Positions 21,288 through 29,046 of a stretch of 64,000 nt of DNA are shown one piece after another. Positions within the stretch are counted from its first letter, which is position 1; the number at the start of each line of letters is the position of its first letter. The notes beneath the pieces were generated by a model that made no database searches, was not told the origin of the DNA, and was given only the letters and a program-made list of their open reading frames with translations. The translations under genes were made by a program, and so were the position numbers. Source of the stretch: a bacterium (GTDB lineage Bacteria; UBA8248); contig OZ241875.1 in the NCBI GenBank assembly GCA_965203325.1, positions 3,904,001 to 3,968,000 on the forward strand, written 5' to 3'.

Positions 21288-23360
21288 ATGAATCACCCCC
21301 GTCAGCAGAACCGCCTCGCACAGGAGACAAGCCCGTATCTCTTACAGCATCAATACAATCCGGTGCAGTGGTACCCATGGGGTGAGGATGCGCTCCGTAA
21401 ATCAAGAGAAGAGAACAAGCCCATTTTCTTGTCCGTCGGCTATTCTGCCTGCCACTGGTGTCATGTGATGGAGCACGAGAGTTTCGAAGATGAGGAAATT
21501 GCAGAAATCCTGAACGAGCATTTCGTCTCCATCAAAGTGGACCGCGAAGAACGTCCGGACATCGACGGCATCTACATGGAAGCGGTGCAGATGATGACGG
21601 GCCAGGGGGGCTGGCCCATGAGTGTCTTTTTGCTCCCGGATTTGAGGCCCTTCTTCGGTGGCACGTATTTTCCGCCACATGACAAATGGGGCAGGCCCGG
21701 TTTCAAGAACGTGCTCTTGAGGCTGGCCGAAGTCTACCGGACAAGACAGGACGATTTGCAGGATAACGCGGAGAGCATCACGGCGAATCTGCAGCAAATG
21801 GGAGTCGTTACGTCAGCAGAAGGTGATTTGAAAGCAGAGTGGATCGACCAGGCCGCTAAGGAACTGAAAGAGCGATTCGACTCGACATGGGGCGGCTTTG
21901 GGAGCGCTCCCAAATTTCCACCCTCGATGGCATTGATGCTGTTATTGAGAAAATGGAAGCAGTCCCCGGATCAGGAATTACTGAAGATGGTCGAGGTAAC
22001 GCTTCAAAGAATGGCGCTGGGCGGGATGTATGATCAACTCGGCGGAGGCTTTCACCGCTACAGCGTGGATAATTATTGGCTTATCCCGCACTTCGAGAAA
22101 ATGCTTTACGACAACGCTCTGCTTACCAGGGTTTATCTCGAAGCATATCAGGCGACGGGAAGTGCGTTTTACCGCTCCGTGGTGGCGGATACGCTCGATT
22201 ACGTTTTGAGGGAGATGACCAGCCCGGGAGGAGGATTTTATTCCGCGCAGGACGCTGACAGCGAAGGAGAGGAGGGCAAGTTCTTCGTTTGGCGTCCTGA
22301 GGAGATAGAAGAGGTTCTCGGCAAAGAAGAAGCCGACATATTCTGCCGGTTCTACAGCGTGACGGAAGAGGGGAACTTCGAGGGCAACACCTCCGCCTTG
22401 TTCATTCAGAAACCACCCCGCGTTTTCGCCGAAGAACTGGGAATCACGGAAGAGAAGCTCTTTGATGTCTTGCAAAGAGGGCGCGCAAAACTCTTCGCCG
22501 AGCGCGAGCGGCGCGTGAAGCCGGGCCTGGATGATAAAATTCTCACGAGTTGGAACGGACTCATGATCGGCTCGATGGCTTTGGCGGGCAGGATTCTGGA
22601 GCACCGTCCCTACGTGGAAGAAGCGGGCAAGGCGGCGGATTTTATTTTGAACAACATGCGCGATGAGCGCGGCTTGCTGAGAAGCCATCGGGAGGGCGTG
22701 AGCAAGTTCAACGCGTATCTGGATGACTATGCTTTTCTGATCGTGGGTCTGGTGGATTTGTACGAGGCGAGCTTCGAGCCCCGGTGGATTCGAGCGGCCT
22801 CTGATTTGGCGCGGGAGATGATATCTCGATATTGGGATGACGAGGCGGGCGCATTCTTCTTTACGGCTCACGATCATGAACAACTCATCGTGCGGAAGAA
22901 GATGACGCAAGACGGCGCCGTTCCGAGCGGGAACTCGATGGCGGCGCTGGGTTTATTGAAACTGGCGAAACTCTCGGGTGAGGCGGAATTCGCAGAGCAT
23001 GGCGAGGCGGTTTTGCGCTCGTTCGGAGATTACCTGAGCCGCGTGCCGGCCGCTTTCCACATGATGCTGGTGGCGCTGGACTTTCATCTTGATTCCCCGG
23101 TGGAAGTGGCGATTGTCGGAGAGAGGAACGCAGAAGATACGCGCGCGGCCCTTAAAGTCGTTGATTCGCGCTTCATTCCCAACAAGGTTTTGGCTCTCAG
23201 AACCGAATCGTCTGACGAAGAAACAGACGCTGCAGTGCCCTTGCTTGATGGGAAATCCATGGTGGATGGACAAGCCACGGTATATCTTTGCGAAAATTTC
23301 ACATGCAAGGAGCCGCTCACGGACTTGGAGAAGATAGAAAAAGCGCTCGAGAGGGATTGA
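21288..23360 (+). CDS. Thioredoxin-domain protein, YyaL/SSP411 (DUF255) family
   Basis: [40 protein letters not shown]. Confidence 0.92.
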
Positions 23361-23365
23361 GTCTC

Positions 23366-24028
23366 TTATTTCGCCCGCACGATGAATGCCCCGTAGCCGT
23401 TGCGCTGCAGCTTTTCCACTAATCGTTTTGCTTTACCCTCGCCGGCCAAGCCTTTGATCTGCACGTGGTAGTGTTCGTAGTTTCCGTGCCAGCCGGGCCG
23501 GATCTCCGAAATCGTGCCGTTTCTATTAAAGTAATCGGCGAATTCTTGGGCTTCCGGTTTTTCCATGAACCCGCCTACTAGGATCATCCATTTCGGGTTC
23601 GGCTCCCGGGGAATGTAGAGGGGTTCGACGGAAACCTCGGTGGTGCCCTTGCGCAGCATACCGATTCTTCGGGCCGCTTCCCGGGAGAGGTCGATGACCC
23701 GGTTTATGAAAAAGGGACCCCGATCGTTGATTCGCACTTGCACCTCCCGCCCGTCATCGCTTCTGCTCACCCGTACGATGGAACCAAATGGAAGTGTGCG
23801 GTGCGCGGCGGTGAGCGCATGCATGTCGTAAGTTTCGCCATTCGCCGTTTTGCGCCCATGGTAGGGATTTCCGTACCAGGAGGCGATGCCGTGCAAATTG
23901 TCCCCCTGGATGTCGTAACTCTTCTGAGTAGGTAGAAAGCCGCAGCTACTCAAAGAAATGGAAAAAGCGACACTAATGATAAGACCACGCAAGGAGACTA
24001 CATATAAAGGATTGTTTTTCGCGTTCAT
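23366..24028 (-). CDS. rlpA: Septal ring lytic transglycosylase RlpA family lipoprotein with SPOR-like domain
   Basis: LSSC lipobox; GIASWYG, TAAHRTLP, RINDRGPF, IDLS. Confidence 0.85.
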   Translation of the reverse strand: MNAKNNPLYVVSLRGLIISVAFSISLSSCGFLPTQKSYDIQGDNLHGIASWYGNPYHGRKTANGETYDMHALTAAHRTLPFGSIVRVSRSDDGREVQVRINDRGPFFINRVIDLSREAARRIGMLRKGTTEVSVEPLYIPREPNPKWMILVGGFMEKPEAQEFADYFNRNGTISEIRPGWHGNYEHYHVQIKGLAGEGKAKRLVEKLQRNGYGAFIVRAK

Positions 24029-24132
24029 CGGGATACATCGGGGCGGATTTCGTAAATAGACGAGGTAATTATATCAGTTTCATCCGGTGCCGCCAGATGG
24101 ATATGAAATTTAAGTGGCTAGCGTGGTTTTAC

Positions 24133-24774
24133 CTAGCCTCGATACTTGGCGAATGTTTCACCGATGCTCACGCCTTTTTCCAGTTCCGCGGTAATTTTTT
24201 CTTCGATTTCCGCCAGTTCATCCATCTTGCTGATGACATCCCCGAGCATTTCCCTGGGGATGACGACCACACCGTTGACGTCTCCCAGAATGACGTCTCC
24301 CTGCCTCACCGCGATGCCCCCGCAATTGATCGGCTCTCCAACGCTTATGGGGACCGTATATCCGCCGCTGCCGTGAACAGACACTCCTCTGGCGAACACG
24401 GGAAACCCCATCTGGCGGTGTTCCTCGATATCTCTGGCCCTGCCGTCAAGAACGACTCCTCCGAGGTTCATCACCTTCGCCCGCGTGGTCATCATCCCGC
24501 CCCAGTTGGCTGTCGTGACACCGGGCGGGATGCTGATGACAACGATGCTCCCCTCGGGCGCCGCGTCGATGTGATGCACCTCGCGCTTGGGCAGGGGGCC
24601 GCCACCGGCGGGAACCATTCGCACGGTGTGGGCCTCTCCCACCATCCGGTAATCCGGGTCGGGCGATAACAGGATGATGTCTGGCATGTGGCCCCTGATT
24701 TTCAGTTTGTCAAAAGCGTCCGCCGCCTGACAGGTCGAATAGCTTCCCAAACGGTTCAACAATTCGTTGCTCAT
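24133..24774 (-). CDS. RraA family / HMG aldolase-like protein
   Basis: ADA, WGGMM, DGRARD, GDVILGDVNGVVVIP. Confidence 0.85.
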   Translation of the reverse strand: MSNELLNRLGSYSTCQAADAFDKLKIRGHMPDIILLSPDPDYRMVGEAHTVRMVPAGGGPLPKREVHHIDAAPEGSIVVISIPPGVTTANWGGMMTTRAKVMNLGGVVLDGRARDIEEHRQMGFPVFARGVSVHGSGGYTVPISVGEPINCGGIAVRQGDVILGDVNGVVVIPREMLGDVISKMDELAEIEEKITAELEKGVSIGETFAKYRG

Positions 24775-24859
24775 GAAATTCTCCGCAATCCGTTGTCTCC
24801 AAATACGTCGGCGTCATGTGGCGAATGGGGCGTTCATATTCTCTTTGAAGGCCTGCGAT

Positions 24860-25612
24860 TTATACACGGAATTCCGAAAATCGCACACCATCCGGATCGA
24901 GCTCCTCCAGGGCGCTCAGTTCTTCGGCGCTTGGCGCAGGAGTTTGCGCCACAATGCTCGGGCGCTCCAGGTCGAAGCCTGTTTTCTCGACCACTTCATC
25001 CATCGAGTGGCCAGGGTGAACGCTGGCGATCTCGAGCCCGGTGGATTTTTTCTCGAACACGGCGATGGGCGTCACGACGTGGCTCAGATTGCCTGATTGC
25101 GTCGAGAAATCGACCCGGGGCACGAGAAATCGTTTGTCGTGAACTGTTCGCCATATGACGGTTCGTTTCACCTGCGGCATGATGACGGCGCCTCCCCCGC
25201 CGCCGGGGAGTCTCACTTTCGGGTGGAACGGGTCGCCGATGTAGCTCAAGTTGGCTCGTCCCTGCTTGTCGAGTTGGGCGGCTCCCAGAAAAGCCATGTC
25301 CACCCCGCCGCGTGCAAAGAGATCATACATATCCGGGTTGTAGAACATAGAGGCGGCGCCGTGGCAGAGTTCGGGATCGGCCGTGCTGTTCGGCATGAAG
25401 CGTGGTTTGGGGTCCACCGAACCCGCGACTTCTATGAGCGAGCAGTTGGGGGCATGTCGTTTCTTGGCCAGGAAGATCGCGACCATCGGAAGTGGGGAGT
25501 TGACCCCGTGAAACACATTCTCGCCGTCTTCGATAAGGCGCGAGAGTGTTACGGCCATCTGGTTTCCGGCGCGGATCACATACTCGGGCAACGAAGCCAG
25601 GCGGTTGCCCAT
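24860..25612 (-). CDS. Class I CoA-transferase-fold beta subunit (GctB/CatJ/IpdB-like)
   Basis: FLGAAQLDKQGRANLS, RLPGGGG, FLVPRVDF, SVHPG..V...TGF. Confidence 0.88.
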   Translation of the reverse strand: MGNRLASLPEYVIRAGNQMAVTLSRLIEDGENVFHGVNSPLPMVAIFLAKKRHAPNCSLIEVAGSVDPKPRFMPNSTADPELCHGAASMFYNPDMYDLFARGGVDMAFLGAAQLDKQGRANLSYIGDPFHPKVRLPGGGGGAVIMPQVKRTVIWRTVHDKRFLVPRVDFSTQSGNLSHVVTPIAVFEKKSTGLEIASVHPGHSMDEVVEKTGFDLERPSIVAQTPAPSAEELSALEELDPDGVRFSEFRV

Positions 25613-25614
25613 CG

Positions 25615-26442
25615 TTATTTCGTCACCGCGTCTTGTGTGTGTGTTTCATCGGTACTCGCCAGATATTCCCGAAGCCCGTCCTGGCTTTGGGTCAAGGCCA
25701 TGTAGCGCCTCATTTCTGTTTTGTCGACCCCGTAAAATGGATGGCAGCTACAAGGAGACGCGCCGCCCGGCGTTTCCACGACTGCTTTGACGAGAAAGCC
25801 TGGAATGGTGGTTCTCTCCGGTTCCGCCGCGATTTCTTCGGGGTCTACGATTTTCTCGGTCGTGAGAATGACCCCTTTTTGCGCCGCGCGCGTCATTTCA
25901 ACGTCGAATTGCTGATTGCCCAGGATTTGTGCGTTTCCCTGCGCATCTGTTTTCTGGACGTGGATCAACGCCCAGTCCGGCTTGAGGGCGGGAATCGCAT
26001 AGAGTTCCTCTTTCGTGTAGGGGTCTTCAATCGTATAGATGCCGCTTTGCTCCGGAATGTCGCTCCCGTCGAATCCTCGAATGGGTTGGAAGGGAACGCC
26101 GTAGGCTGCGGCCCGCAGCCCAGCAAGTACGCTGGCTCAGGCGTGTTCGGTCAGGCCGGCCAATCCTTTCTCTATCGCCTTTCGATAGTGAGGTGCCAAT
26201 CCGAATTCCGCCTCGAATGTAACAATGCCGCTGATGATTTTCTTCACGGCGCCTGCGGCGCAAAGGAGATCGGCGTCGTAACCGGGAGACGGCTTGATGA
26301 GCGTGAGGTCCTGAAGACCCGCGCGCGCAATTTCGCGGATGAGGGCGGCGGGTGTTCTGTGCAATAAGGTTCCGCCGGGACTGATCGCGTCTCCCTCCTC
26401 GATGAGGGAAGCGGCTTCTCGCAAGTGAACTTGTTTGCTCAT
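25615..26442 (-). CDS. Class I CoA-transferase-fold alpha subunit, probable selenoprotein (Sec102 at TGA 26139-26137), 275 aa
   Basis: ORFs 26137-26442 and 25615-25968 are in one frame separated only by a TGA; readthrough gives EHA-U-ASVLAGLRAAAYGVPFQPIRGFDGSD...DPY...IPALKPDWALIHVQKTDAQGN, a continuous GctA/CatI/IpdA-type sequence; SECIS-like hairpin follows. Confidence 0.8.
26098..26136 (-). promoter_or_regulatory. Candidate bacterial SECIS element
   Basis: After UGA: perfect 7-bp stem GGCUGCG/CGCAGCC with G-starting loop GGC at nt +24; lower pairings GCC/GGC and GUA/UAC. Confidence 0.65.
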
Positions 26443-26675
26443 GGGCAGTTTTCATCCCTTTGTTTAGGGCGTATGCAACAGGAAAAAGAAACCATGGGCA
26501 TAGTTTAGCAAAAGTAGATGTTTTGTGCTTGCGCTCATACGCCTTTTTGCAGGCAGAGAGGTGATTTCGACGCATTCATTGACCAGCGGCCTCGGTGTGG
26601 CGTAAATATCGGTGAAATGACACTTTCTATAAAGTGCCGGCATACATCCAGACGAATCTATTAAAGGAGCATGGA

Positions 26676-27188
26676 ATGCCACGGATTTCCTTGTTAGAAC
26701 CCGAGCAGGCGGAAGCATCCGCGAAGCGCATCATGGAGAATTTGCAAAAACAGTTCGGCGTCGTGATTCCACCGGTGAAGGCACTGGCCCACAAGCCGGA
26801 TTTCTTGCGTTCTTTGCTGAGCCTGACCACGGTGGCAGATGGCCCTGGGGAGATTGACGTCGGCTTCAAGGAAATCTTGAACATTCGCGCGTCGGTTCTC
26901 AACGGGTGCCATTTTTGCGCCAACATGCATTCCAACATGGCGAAGATGCATAAGGTGGGGGATGAGAAGACGAAAGCCGCGCAAGAGGGTTCCTCAAGCG
27001 ATGTCTTCGATGAGAAAGAAAAGGCGGCGCTTCGCCTTTGTGAGGAAAGCACGCAGGGGGTGAGCGTTTCAGACGAAACGTTTGAAGCGCTGAAGATGCA
27101 CTATTCGGAAGCGCAGATTGTGGAGCTTTTGGGCGCCATTGCGCTCATCAACACCTGGAATCGATTGATCGTCGGAATGGGTTTCTAG
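26676..27188 (+). CDS. AhpD/carboxymuconolactone decarboxylase family protein
   Basis: E...R.S..NGCHFC..H, IVEL...IA..N.WNR; AAGGAG RBS. Confidence 0.88.
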   Translation: MPRISLLEPEQAEASAKRIMENLQKQFGVVIPPVKALAHKPDFLRSLLSLTTVADGPGEIDVGFKEILNIRASVLNGCHFCANMHSNMAKMHKVGDEKTKAAQEGSSSDVFDEKEKAALRLCEESTQGVSVSDETFEALKMHYSEAQIVELLGAIALINTWNRLIVGMGF

Positions 27189-27229
27189 GCGCGGTTTTCT
27201 CGTGCGCTTGGGTTGTCGAAAAGAGAGGT

Positions 27230-28408
27230 TTAGAGACTCAGCGCAGCCCGGCTGACCGTAAGTTCGGTTTCTCCCAGAAGTTCCGATGTCGAGAGTTTTC
27301 CGCTCATGACGTCGATGAGTTCTTTTTCGAGCATATCCCTCGCCTCATCTATGCGCATCGTCCCCTCCATGACGCCGCTGATGTCCACGTCGATGTTCTC
27401 GGCCATCGTCCGCGCGGTTCGGGGATTGCCCGTCACCTTGATGGTGGGAGAGACGGGATGCCCGATGGGATTACCGATTCCGGTCGAAAATATGATCGCC
27501 TGCGCCCCGCTGGCCGCCAGGGAGGATATGTTCTCCACGCCCGCGCAGGGAGCGTCGGCGAAGATGGCGCCTTTTTTCTTGGGGCGTTCACCCACGCCGA
27601 CGACTTCGACGATGGGATGGCTCCCCGCTTTCTTGACGGCTCCTAGGCTTTTCTCCTCGATGGAGGAAAGTCCGCCCCTGATGTTATCGGGCGCAGGATT
27701 GGAACCGATGAAATCGACGCCGATGCTCTCGGCGTAATCGACGGCGCGCCTGGCGGAATCGATGATTCTCCGCGCTGTTTTTCTGTCCGCGGCACGGCGG
27801 GCGAGAAGGTGCTCGGCGCCGACGATTTCCAGGGTTTCGGAAAAAATGACCGAACCTCCCGCTTCCACGACTCTGTCGGCGACCATGCCCGTCACGGGGT
27901 TCGAGATGACGCCGCTGGTCGTATCCGAACCGCCGCATTCGGCCCCGATGGTTAGTTCGTCCAGTTCACAGCGGACGCGCTTGGCGGATGCGAGGTGCGC
28001 GGAGAGTTTCGTGGCGAGTTCCACGACGTGCGAAGTGGTGCTGAGCGTGCCCCCAATTTCCTGAATATTCACGGCTTCTATGGGCATCCAGGGAGATGTT
28101 CTCGCGGCTACTTCCGCGATGGCGTTGGCGCTCTTGGGTTCGAGGCTCACGATAATGGCGGCCCCTACGTTCGGGTGGGCGGCGGTGTGTCCCATCACCC
28201 GCCAATGTTGCGCCTCGTCCTCACCCATCAGGGCGCGTCCGAACGAGGTGTTGACGGGCGTGGCGTCTCTTACGAGCCCGCCGATTCTGCGGACGATGGG
28301 ATTGGAATTGTCCATTCCGCTGACGATAGCGAGGTGGTTCCGGCCGCCTGGAGGACCCTCGGGTCTCCTGTAGCCCCAGAAGGTAGGAGTGCCTCTTTTA
28401 CGGGCCAA
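27230..28408 (-). CDS. UxaA-family dehydratase/sulfo-lyase large subunit (altronate dehydratase / SuyB-like)
   Basis: GYRR..G..G.RN, HPNVGA, ECGGSDTTSG..SNP, GNPAPDN..GGLSSIEEKSLG, FSTG.G. Confidence 0.85.
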   Translation of the reverse strand: MARKRGTPTFWGYRRPEGPPGGRNHLAIVSGMDNSNPIVRRIGGLVRDATPVNTSFGRALMGEDEAQHWRVMGHTAAHPNVGAAIIVSLEPKSANAIAEVAARTSPWMPIEAVNIQEIGGTLSTTSHVVELATKLSAHLASAKRVRCELDELTIGAECGGSDTTSGVISNPVTGMVADRVVEAGGSVIFSETLEIVGAEHLLARRAADRKTARRIIDSARRAVDYAESIGVDFIGSNPAPDNIRGGLSSIEEKSLGAVKKAGSHPIVEVVGVGERPKKKGAIFADAPCAGVENISSLAASGAQAIIFSTGIGNPIGHPVSPTIKVTGNPRTARTMAENIDVDISGVMEGTMRIDEARDMLEKELIDVMSGKLSTSELLGETELTVSRAALSL

Positions 28409-28410
28409 AC

Positions 28411-28683
28411 CTAACCCCTGGTGCTCTTGATGTTATGGACGTGGACGTGACTGCCGGCGGATATCTCTTGTGTGGCAGTGCCGATGACCTCGCCGTATTT
28501 GAGCACTTTTGCGTTTGAGCGGATCTTGCGCAGCGCGATTTTGTGTCCGAAAGGAATCGCTTGCGTTGCGGAAAGCGTGAGTGACTTGTCATCGCCTTCG
28601 ATTTCTACACTCTGCTCGGGGGAGATGTCCTCGAGCACCGTGGCCACGTTGTCTTTCGGGTGCATCACCAGCGCTCGGCTCAT
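28411..28683 (-). CDS. UxaA-family SAF-domain small subunit (SuyA-like)
   Basis: HPKDNVAT, IPFGHKIAL, KYGEVIG, HVHVHN. Confidence 0.88.
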   Translation of the reverse strand: MSRALVMHPKDNVATVLEDISPEQSVEIEGDDKSLTLSATQAIPFGHKIALRKIRSNAKVLKYGEVIGTATQEISAGSHVHVHNIKSTRG

Positions 28684-28704
28684 CAGGGGTTCTCCATGGC
28701 GCGT

Positions 28705-29046
28705 CTAGTCGTCGTCGCCGACATTTCCGGGGAGCCTCAACCGCAGCCGCTCGACGGGGCGTCCGTTTTTCAGATGCTCCTCGATGAGTTCGGGAACGTC
28801 TTCCACCTTCACGCCCGTGTACCAGACCCCCTCCGGGTAGACGACCAGGGTGGGACCCATCGTGCACGGACCCAGACAAGTGGCTCCAGCCATGGCTGTA
28901 TCCGCAGCGAGTTCGTCATTCGAGCCTATTGCCTCTGTTATCGCTTGCGCGACTTCGATACTGCCCTTGCTCTGACAACAGCCCATCGGGTGAGTGGGCG
29001 GGCGTTGATTGATGCAGACGAAAACATGTCTTTTAATATGTTCCAC
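28705..29046 (-). CDS. Thioredoxin-like [2Fe-2S] ferredoxin
   Basis: HVFVC...GCC...CLGPC..GP..VVYPEGVWY. Confidence 0.9.
   Translation of the reverse strand: MEHIKRHVFVCINQRPPTHPMGCCQSKGSIEVAQAITEAIGSNDELAADTAMAGATCLGPCTMGPTLVVYPEGVWYTGVKVEDVPELIEEHLKNGRPVERLRLRLPGNVGDDD

Follow-up and report, generated by a model that had tools for sequence, protein, structure and literature searches.

The window analysed here, a 64,000-nucleotide stretch of contig OZ241875.1 (assembly GCA_965203325.1, lineage UBA8248, positions 3,904,001 to 3,968,000), contains a pair of genes for the alpha and beta subunits of an enzyme with the CoA-transferase fold, the first of which is interrupted by an in-frame TGA at codon 102. 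This UGA is almost certainly decoded as selenocysteine (Sec) with the assistance of a hairpin just downstream, because the TGA is conserved, homologues carry Cys in its place, the hairpin is conserved and covaries, and the machinery for Sec is present in the genome. As far as can be judged by sequence comparison, the pair falls in a Cys/Sec subfamily to which the classical glutamyl mechanism of family I CoA-transferases is unavailable, and the evidence points to an undescribed selenium-dependent reaction. We assign a probability of roughly 0.5 to the reading in which residue 102 is catalytic and acts as a nucleophile, with a covalent intermediate beside the CoA site. The features on which this argument turns are the following, in window coordinates.

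25615..26442 (stop codon included), minus strand: alpha subunit gene, CoA-transferase fold, 275 aa with Sec at residue 102
26137..26139, minus strand: UGA codon 102, read as Sec; TGA kept in orthologues, Cys in homologues
26103..26121, minus strand: SECIS-type (selenocysteine insertion sequence) hairpin, 8 pairs (7 G-C/A-U and a closing G-U), GGC loop at 26113-26111
24860..25612, minus strand: beta subunit gene, 250 aa; Pfam CoA_trans, E 1.6e-20

The in-frame UGA and its downstream hairpin

The alpha frame runs from an ATG at 26442 to a stop codon at 25617-25615 and is open throughout apart from the TGA at 26139-26137, as a sequence-only reading of this DNA had maintained; translated through, it gives one Pfam CoA_trans match (PF01144, E 2.8e-21) that covers residues 7-223 and bridges the TGA. 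The beta gene starts 2 nt past the alpha stop codon. Enzymes of this fold are built of paired alpha and beta subunits, and the two PF01144 subunits required of a family I CoA-transferase are both present according to the Pfam and PDB matches.

Of the 51 genomes of the phylum searched, 34 hold matches to the alpha protein with one TGA, 35 matches in all at 100-63% protein identity, while all matches at or below 54% identity in those 51 genomes are without a stop. The Sec form is distributed over the genera as follows.

Genus g1 (window's genome counted in): 21 of 23 genomes
Genus g2: 4 of 4 genomes
Genus g4: 1 of 1 genome
Genus g8: 3 of 4 genomes
Genus g9: 5 of 5 genomes
Remaining genera of the phylum: 0 of 14 genomes

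At the orthologue loci that were read, the TGA stands at the identical codon in 30 of 30; the three g8 matches hold in addition one or two TAA codons within the matched span, and the position of the TGA was confirmed in one of them (L037). A second, metagenomic lineage (fragment family P0113), approximately 53-55% identical to the window alpha protein (54-55% for full-length members), has the TGA at the same column in 10/10 contigs, in the context HTENS-U-PVIYAGMRAAS and in a frame that is open upstream to the limit of each contig. Codon 102 is TGA in all 33 distinct sequences of both lineages, and TAA or TAG in none. The tabulation of this codon across homologues that the sequence-only reading had proposed thus gave TGA in orthologues and, in the 17/17 protein-database homologues that cover the column, Cys; the other six of the 23 homologues aligned are C-terminal fragments of 152-170 aa that begin just past it. 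In a FastTree phylogeny the two Sec lineages are separate, well-supported clades in an unresolved polytomy inside a 63-row clade (support 98), a topology that fits one or two Cys-to-Sec events alike, so that these cannot be told apart. A wider contig search with the single alpha protein returned only 20 close relatives and one archaeal 38% match. On one metagenome contig (L085, 621-1516 and 2513-5314) the alpha gene and ileS each occur in two frames, which probably reflects assembly frameshifts and not biology.

Public gene calls split the gene at the TGA: the N-terminal fragments, about 101 aa long, form a cluster of 50, and the C-terminal ones, of 166-167 aa, are named 'hypothetical protein' or 'CoA transferase subunit A'. 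These calls favour a plain stop that leaves either a pseudogene or a gene divided into products of 101 and about 166 aa. We regard such a stop as highly improbable: the interrupting codon is invariably TGA in the 33 distinct sequences of two lineages, both halves have stayed under purifying selection among sequences as far apart as 63% and 53% identity, the called C-terminal starts vary by lineage, and the break would part a strand from its helix within the domain of the AlphaFold2 (AF2) model, quite apart from a hairpin kept at synonymous sites and the Sec machinery of the genome. The sequence-only reading had also allowed for a different codon in raw reads; in contigs from three public runs that cover the site, positions 26137-26139 and the hairpin are unchanged among 40 listed differences (of 61). 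Contigs X22 and X23 derive from RNA-seq libraries, their coverage being no proof of transcription and silent on translation, and X23, from a relative of about 93% identity, spans 25943-26443. This single contig stops at 26443, one base ahead of the alpha start codon, and continues in adapter letters, an ending that could hint at a leaderless or near-leaderless transcript.

A hairpin had been proposed at 17-33 nt past the UGA, and we locate it at 16-34 nt, with the sequence GGGCUGCG-GGC-CGCAGCCU. Among 30 orthologues, codons 108-114 average 0.09 bits of codon entropy, less than any other seven-codon window of the gene; the average for the gene, taken over 123 sites of four- or six-fold degeneracy at which the residue is conserved, is 1.16 bits. 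The two hairpin variants observed, U-A to U-G in one and G-C to G-U in the other, leave the pairing intact. The hairpin of the second lineage reads GGGAUGCG-GGC-CGCAUCCC, and between the two lineages there is a compensatory C-G to A-U change, which also alters two amino acids and is a single event, common to 8 sequences and counted once. Over the 33 distinct sequences 263 of 264 cells are paired, as compared to 34-50% in slid controls, and at seven Cys-paralogue loci that encode the same GLRA(A/S)A peptide the codons vary and cannot form the hairpin. It is this comparative conservation and covariation that speaks for the fold suggested by the sequence-only reading; the folding energy of the 68 nt past the UGA does not stand out from that of shuffled sequence (z 0.36, with 126 of 200 shuffles folding equally well), so that thermodynamics alone is no evidence for the hairpin. 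The window DNA around it is GC-rich, and an Rfam scan of 24000-27300 detected no SECIS and no other relevant family.

The expectation that this organism decodes Sec was borne out, as its genome encodes SelA, SelB, SelD and tRNA-Sec. The selD gene (G000:C1:1726679-1727641, locus L004) also encodes a selenoprotein, its TGA lying in frame in the context AGG-U-GSK, and its hairpin, a GC stem with a GGA loop at 13-27 nt past the TGA, is comparable to that of the alpha gene. The claim of a second UGA-plus-SECIS gene within the window did not hold up: Pfam screens of 107 read-through open reading frames (20 + 87), in which frames with a TGA within 8-10 codons of an end were left out, yielded none.

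With catalogued bacterial selenoproteins the alpha gene shares the occurrence of UGA/Cys pairs, a hairpin just downstream and a Sec that opens a helix. By keyword, no PF01144, glutaconate or CoA-transferase entry was found in the main text of a 2026 review of >110 selenoprotein families (PMC13188914), nor in a 2022 review or the deep-Sep, GOS and 2021 deltaproteobacteria papers, supplements excepted in each case. No Sec-containing enzyme of the CoA-transferase fold was present among the matches listed from the published literature. In the catalogues searched in this way, selenium is not reported for the CoA-transferase fold, and the present analysis adds a selenoprotein family that annotation pipelines now cut in two.

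Residue 102 and the active site

The placement of Sec on the catalytic Glu of IpdA, which the sequence-only reading had put forward on an ungapped alignment, was reproduced by both profile and single-sequence HMMER alignments to the PDB, in which Sec102 aligns with the Glu of the motif ...REMD-E-GM... in IpdA of M. tuberculosis (6CON) and R. jostii (6CO6). The same column is Ala in IpdA of 6COJ, the Foldseek title of which is 'IpdAB E105A COCHEA-CoA complex', and the column is therefore that of IpdA Glu105, which, besides what that title implies, we take to be the catalytic base. It is Gln in GctA and Gly in AibA, and presumably corresponds to Gln99 of pig SCOT. A comparison of an alpha/beta model with IpdAB and GctAB had also been suggested, and was realised with an AF2 model of the alpha subunit (pLDDT 94.1), for which IpdA is the top Foldseek match (TM 0.89, about 31% identity) and GctA and AibA are also found; in this model helix 102-113, which follows strand 96-99, begins with Sec102. 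Of 2616 family matches at E 1e-3 or better, the best 150 representatives have Glu (62), Cys (28), Gly (15), Asn (14), His (7), a gap (7) or another residue (17) at the column, and Cys is found in the 8 closest full-length representatives of this set. On this alignment the column is a functionally switching site that differs between subfamilies.

The beta subunit has in turn lost the residue on which family I CoA-transferases depend. In the PDB alignment Val63 of the window beta subunit aligns with Cys56 of AibB, its best match (E 6e-35), and AibB Cys56 replaces the catalytic Glu of glutaconate CoA-transferases; the canonical site is occupied by Glu54 in GctB and by Gly57 in IpdB. Glu62, in the motif LIEVAG, lies one position ahead of the canonical site, and the earlier observation that it is out of register is thereby confirmed. 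The motifs at the canonical site in the other betas of the Sec and Cys clades are listed below.

Five Cys-paralogue betas: LNIPGG, Asn at the early-Glu position
Second Sec lineage beta: LNIGGG, Asn at the early-Glu position
Caballeronia beta: INVAGG, Asn at the early-Glu position
Nocardioides JS614 beta: LVEGA, early Glu kept
Xanthobacter Py2 beta: LVAGA, Ala at the early-Glu position

The canonical site is without Glu in every Sec- or Cys-clade beta read, and the early Glu is retained in only some of these clades. The window's genome encodes three alpha/beta pairs: the Sec form, a Cys form of 46% identity and a pair of 37% identity. We take this third pair, in which the beta Glu stands in register (FEGG) and the alpha column is His, for a probable true CoA-transferase. 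The two paralogue loci lie outside the window.

G000:C1:2656514-2657302 (L047) and G000:C1:3250480-3251262 (L048): paralogue loci

The solved enzymes of this fold offer three points of comparison. IpdAB, the ring-opening hydrolase of COCHEA-CoA in steroid catabolism (PDB 6CO6, 6CO9, 6COJ, 6CON), resembles the window pair in its two-subunit fold, in a beta subunit without the catalytic Glu and in the presence of a special residue on alpha at the same column, which is Glu105 in IpdA and Sec or Cys here; its neighbourhood of steroid ring C/D genes (crotonase EchA20, IpdC, FadA6) is absent within approximately 4 kb of the window pair. AibA/AibB, the 3-methylglutaconyl-CoA decarboxylase of Myxococcus xanthus (PDB 5MZW-5N03), is the best PDB sequence match for both subunits (alpha E 1.1e-31) and is a non-transferase of the same fold, but its acyl-pocket Cys is Cys56 of beta, where the window beta has Val63, while AibA has Gly at the alpha Sec column and AibB Glu72 aligns with Ala in the window beta. 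GctAB (PDB 1POI) and other family I CoA-transferases share the Pfam family and fold in both subunits; their beta Glu54 (GctB numbering) is lost in the window pair, and GctA has Gln at the alpha column. The Cys homologues are publicly named glutaconate or family I CoA-transferases. After IpdAB, with Glu on alpha, and AibAB, with Cys on beta, a Cys or Sec on alpha combined with the lack of a beta Glu would be a third rewiring of the CoA-transferase active site.

In the mechanism that we propose, the invariant Cys of alpha, here Sec, at the N-terminus of its helix would take over from a beta subunit that has lost the anhydride- and thioester-forming Glu of family I CoA-transferases. With a substrate bound beside the CoA site, the selenolate or thiolate would attack it at an electrophilic carbon, be it that of a carbonyl or of a Michael acceptor, and the resulting covalent seleno/thio-hemiacetal or seleno/thio-ester would then be resolved by CoA or water, so that a CoA-linked acyl group could be made, broken or rearranged without the glutamyl-CoA route. 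A nucleophile is preferred because at least two clades have Sec in place of the Cys. The suggestion in the sequence-only reading that this may be no ordinary CoA-transferase, but an enzyme with a selenol nucleophile or base, is strengthened by the family-wide data, whereas the chemistry, the catalytic role of residue 102 and the nature of the substrate are what we infer.

Several observations weigh against the nucleophile. IpdAB reportedly works without a covalent enzyme intermediate, and AibAB is likewise described with acid/base steps and none. With its low pKa a selenol has largely lost its proton at neutral pH and makes a poor general acid, but it could still serve as a base. The neighbourhoods vary by lineage, with RraA and CMD genes in one case, a PfkB kinase in another and housekeeping genes in a third, and so single out no one pathway; moreover, Glu62 is present in the window beta and its counterpart in that of JS614, so that a shifted Glu nucleophile is conceivable in these lineages. 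A rival reading is that of a real selenoprotein in which Sec/Cys102 is a general base or acid only and forms no covalent intermediate, the enzyme being a hydrolase, decarboxylase or isomerase of an acyl-CoA in the manner of IpdAB or AibAB. This is possible, if rather doubtful. Sec102 does take the place of IpdA Glu105, the presumed base, which the depositors of 6COJ mutated to trap substrate according to its title; a role as proton donor is discussed for the AibAB Cys, which shares the pocket but belongs to the other subunit, and the crotonase gene beside the Caballeronia Cys form parallels the pairing of a crotonase with IpdAB. The choice of Sec over Cys in two lineages, on the other hand, usually signifies a nucleophilic or redox role, and the deprotonation of the selenol disfavours it as an acid.

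Relatives, gene neighbourhoods and possible reactions

The genes flanking the alpha/beta pair in the window, from the RraA-like gene downstream of beta to a dehydratase pair beyond the alpha start, are the following.

24133..24774, minus strand: RraA-like gene (class II aldolase/decarboxylase family), Pfam RraA-like, E 2.3e-32; downstream of beta
26634..27188, plus strand: CMD/AhpD-like gene with a CxxCxxxH motif; sub-threshold Pfam CMD and NCBIfam peroxidase-related matches
27230..28683, minus strand: split UxaA-type dehydratase pair (Pfam); SAF protein 28683..28411 (90 aa) and catalytic part 28408..27230 (392 aa)

The RraA-like gene is probably in one operon with alpha and beta, and the CMD/AhpD-like gene, upstream of alpha, is transcribed divergently from it. 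In the small/large architecture of the UxaA-type pair, the link of which to alpha/beta is uncertain, we presume a resemblance to the sulfolactate sulfo-lyase SuyAB. Up to approximately 4 kb away the Pfam matches comprise the RraA-like, CMD-like and UxaA-like genes, a ferredoxin, RlpA and a YyaL-like protein. No NCBIfam model gives alpha or beta a name (the top match reaches 40 bits, the cutoff being 128.5), and the database returns only generic sub-threshold matches for the alpha, beta, RraA-like and UxaA-like proteins, so that no pathway can be named from them. A divergent CMD gene beside an alpha-beta-RraA arrangement was found at 7 of the 8 Sec loci examined, in 4 genera; the UxaA pair adjoins in 4/4 loci of the window's genus and lies 3 kb off in one other genus, and is absent from the fetched stretch in three other genera.

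Another rival is a redox or thiol-exchange role, in which the exchange partner of Sec102 would be CoA or a different thiol cofactor in the CoA site, bound as its disulfide, persulfide or thioether, and the AhpD-like CxxC protein would recycle the Sec. The recurrence of the CMD/AhpD-like CxxCxxxH gene just described is in its favour, as are the pyridine-nucleotide-disulfide oxidoreductases that adjoin Cys homologues in coenzyme M (CoM) clusters and the fact that most selenoprotein families in the main text of the 2026 review are thiol oxidoreductases (PMC13188914). We nonetheless consider it unlikely, as no second Cys occurs within 4 residues of Sec102 in the Nitrospinota or second-lineage forms (those of JS614 and Py2 read CC), the CMD neighbour is missing from the second Sec lineage and from the Cys paralogue loci, and the nearest solved relatives are all non-redox.

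At the remaining loci the company of the pair is different again. In a fifth genus (L044, G047:C378, 5351-9361) the order is RidA-like, alpha (Sec), beta, alpha (Cys) and CoA_binding_2, with two alphas around one beta and no RraA or CMD neighbour. The pair of the second Sec lineage lies between smr and ileS, and the Cys paralogue in the window's genome lies between scpAB and a PfkB kinase, the latter a generic ribokinase-like protein by NCBIfam. In Caballeronia sp. NK8, IclR precedes a run of genes for a family III CoA-transferase, a crotonase, the alpha and beta subunits of the Cys form and an acyl-CoA ligase; a 3-oxoadipate:acetyl-CoA acetyltransferase, matched with an above-cutoff score, is encoded nearby. 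The top annotated plasmid matches, at 38-45% identity, are the pairs of Nocardioides JS614, Mycolicibacterium chubuense NBB4 and Xanthobacter Py2; those of JS614 and Py2 lie with SDR, ADP-forming acyl-CoA synthetase-like and CoM-biosynthesis genes, and the JS614 cluster additionally has genes for an etnE-type transferase and an alkene monooxygenase. The Cys forms are thus associated with acyl-CoA and CoM-thiol metabolism. Based on the neighbours in Caballeronia NK8, in JS614 and Py2, and on CoA_binding_2, we favour the view that the Cys/Sec subfamily would work on CoA-linked acids.

The plasmid-borne relatives are the CoATa/CoATb proteins ('glutaconate CoA-transferase subunits A/B') of CoM-dependent ethene, vinyl chloride and epoxide clusters, known from Nocardioides JS614, Mycolicibacterium NBB4, Xanthobacter Py2 and Methylohalobius crimeensis. 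As in the window pair, the canonical beta Glu is lacking, and Cys is invariant at the Sec column (alignment A3); unlike the window alpha, with its single Sec, the proteins of JS614 and Py2 read CC, and none of the cluster genes (etnE, SDR, acyl-CoA synthetase, CoM biosynthesis) flank the window pair. In these CoM-cluster homologues (L088, 8977-9891, and L089, 8932-9918) the motifs are ESCC and DSCC, with a vicinal Cys pair that is absent from the Nitrospinota forms. Papers on these clusters do no more than presume CoA transfer for CoATa/CoATb. For M. crimeensis an increase of both subunits, which putatively bear the Cys, is reported on exposure to ethylene. The Cys family accordingly takes in the 'CoA-transferase' pairs of ethene, vinyl chloride and epoxide clusters, for which a role toward acetyl-CoA is only presumed, and its presence there provides a concrete residue and hypotheses that are testable in cultivable bacteria. 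The change from Cys to Sec in two lineages marks the putative catalytic residue of a large, uncharacterised family.

A more specific form of the nucleophilic reading, which we consider quite unlikely as it stands, is that the Cys/Sec subfamily carries out an internal-redox acyl transfer that expels a leaving group. The substrate would be an aldehyde or ketone with an alpha substituent (CoM or sulfite); on addition of the selenolate or thiolate to its carbonyl the substituent would be expelled, and the acyl-seleno/thioester would be passed to CoA in the old transferase site to give an acyl-CoA without any cofactor. Candidate substrates would be 2-oxoethyl-CoM in ethene degraders and a sulfoacetaldehyde-like compound in sponge-associated Nitrospinota. 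If true, this would be the first acyl-selenoester enzyme intermediate in the CoA-transferase fold, and it would supply the missing step from 2-oxoethyl-CoM to acetyl-CoA in the aerobic catabolism of ethene and vinyl chloride.

Three further genes were observed in passing. A homologue of ComA (phosphosulfolactate synthase) is encoded elsewhere in the genome (G000:C1:669764-670489). A gene for a thioredoxin-like 2Fe-2S ferredoxin adjoins the UxaA-type pair (window 27230-29046). A 690-aa protein with YyaL and thioredoxin domains (window 21288-23360) gives, over residues 25-86, a faint NCBIfam match to the selenoprotein TsoB, and its gene is without an in-frame TGA.

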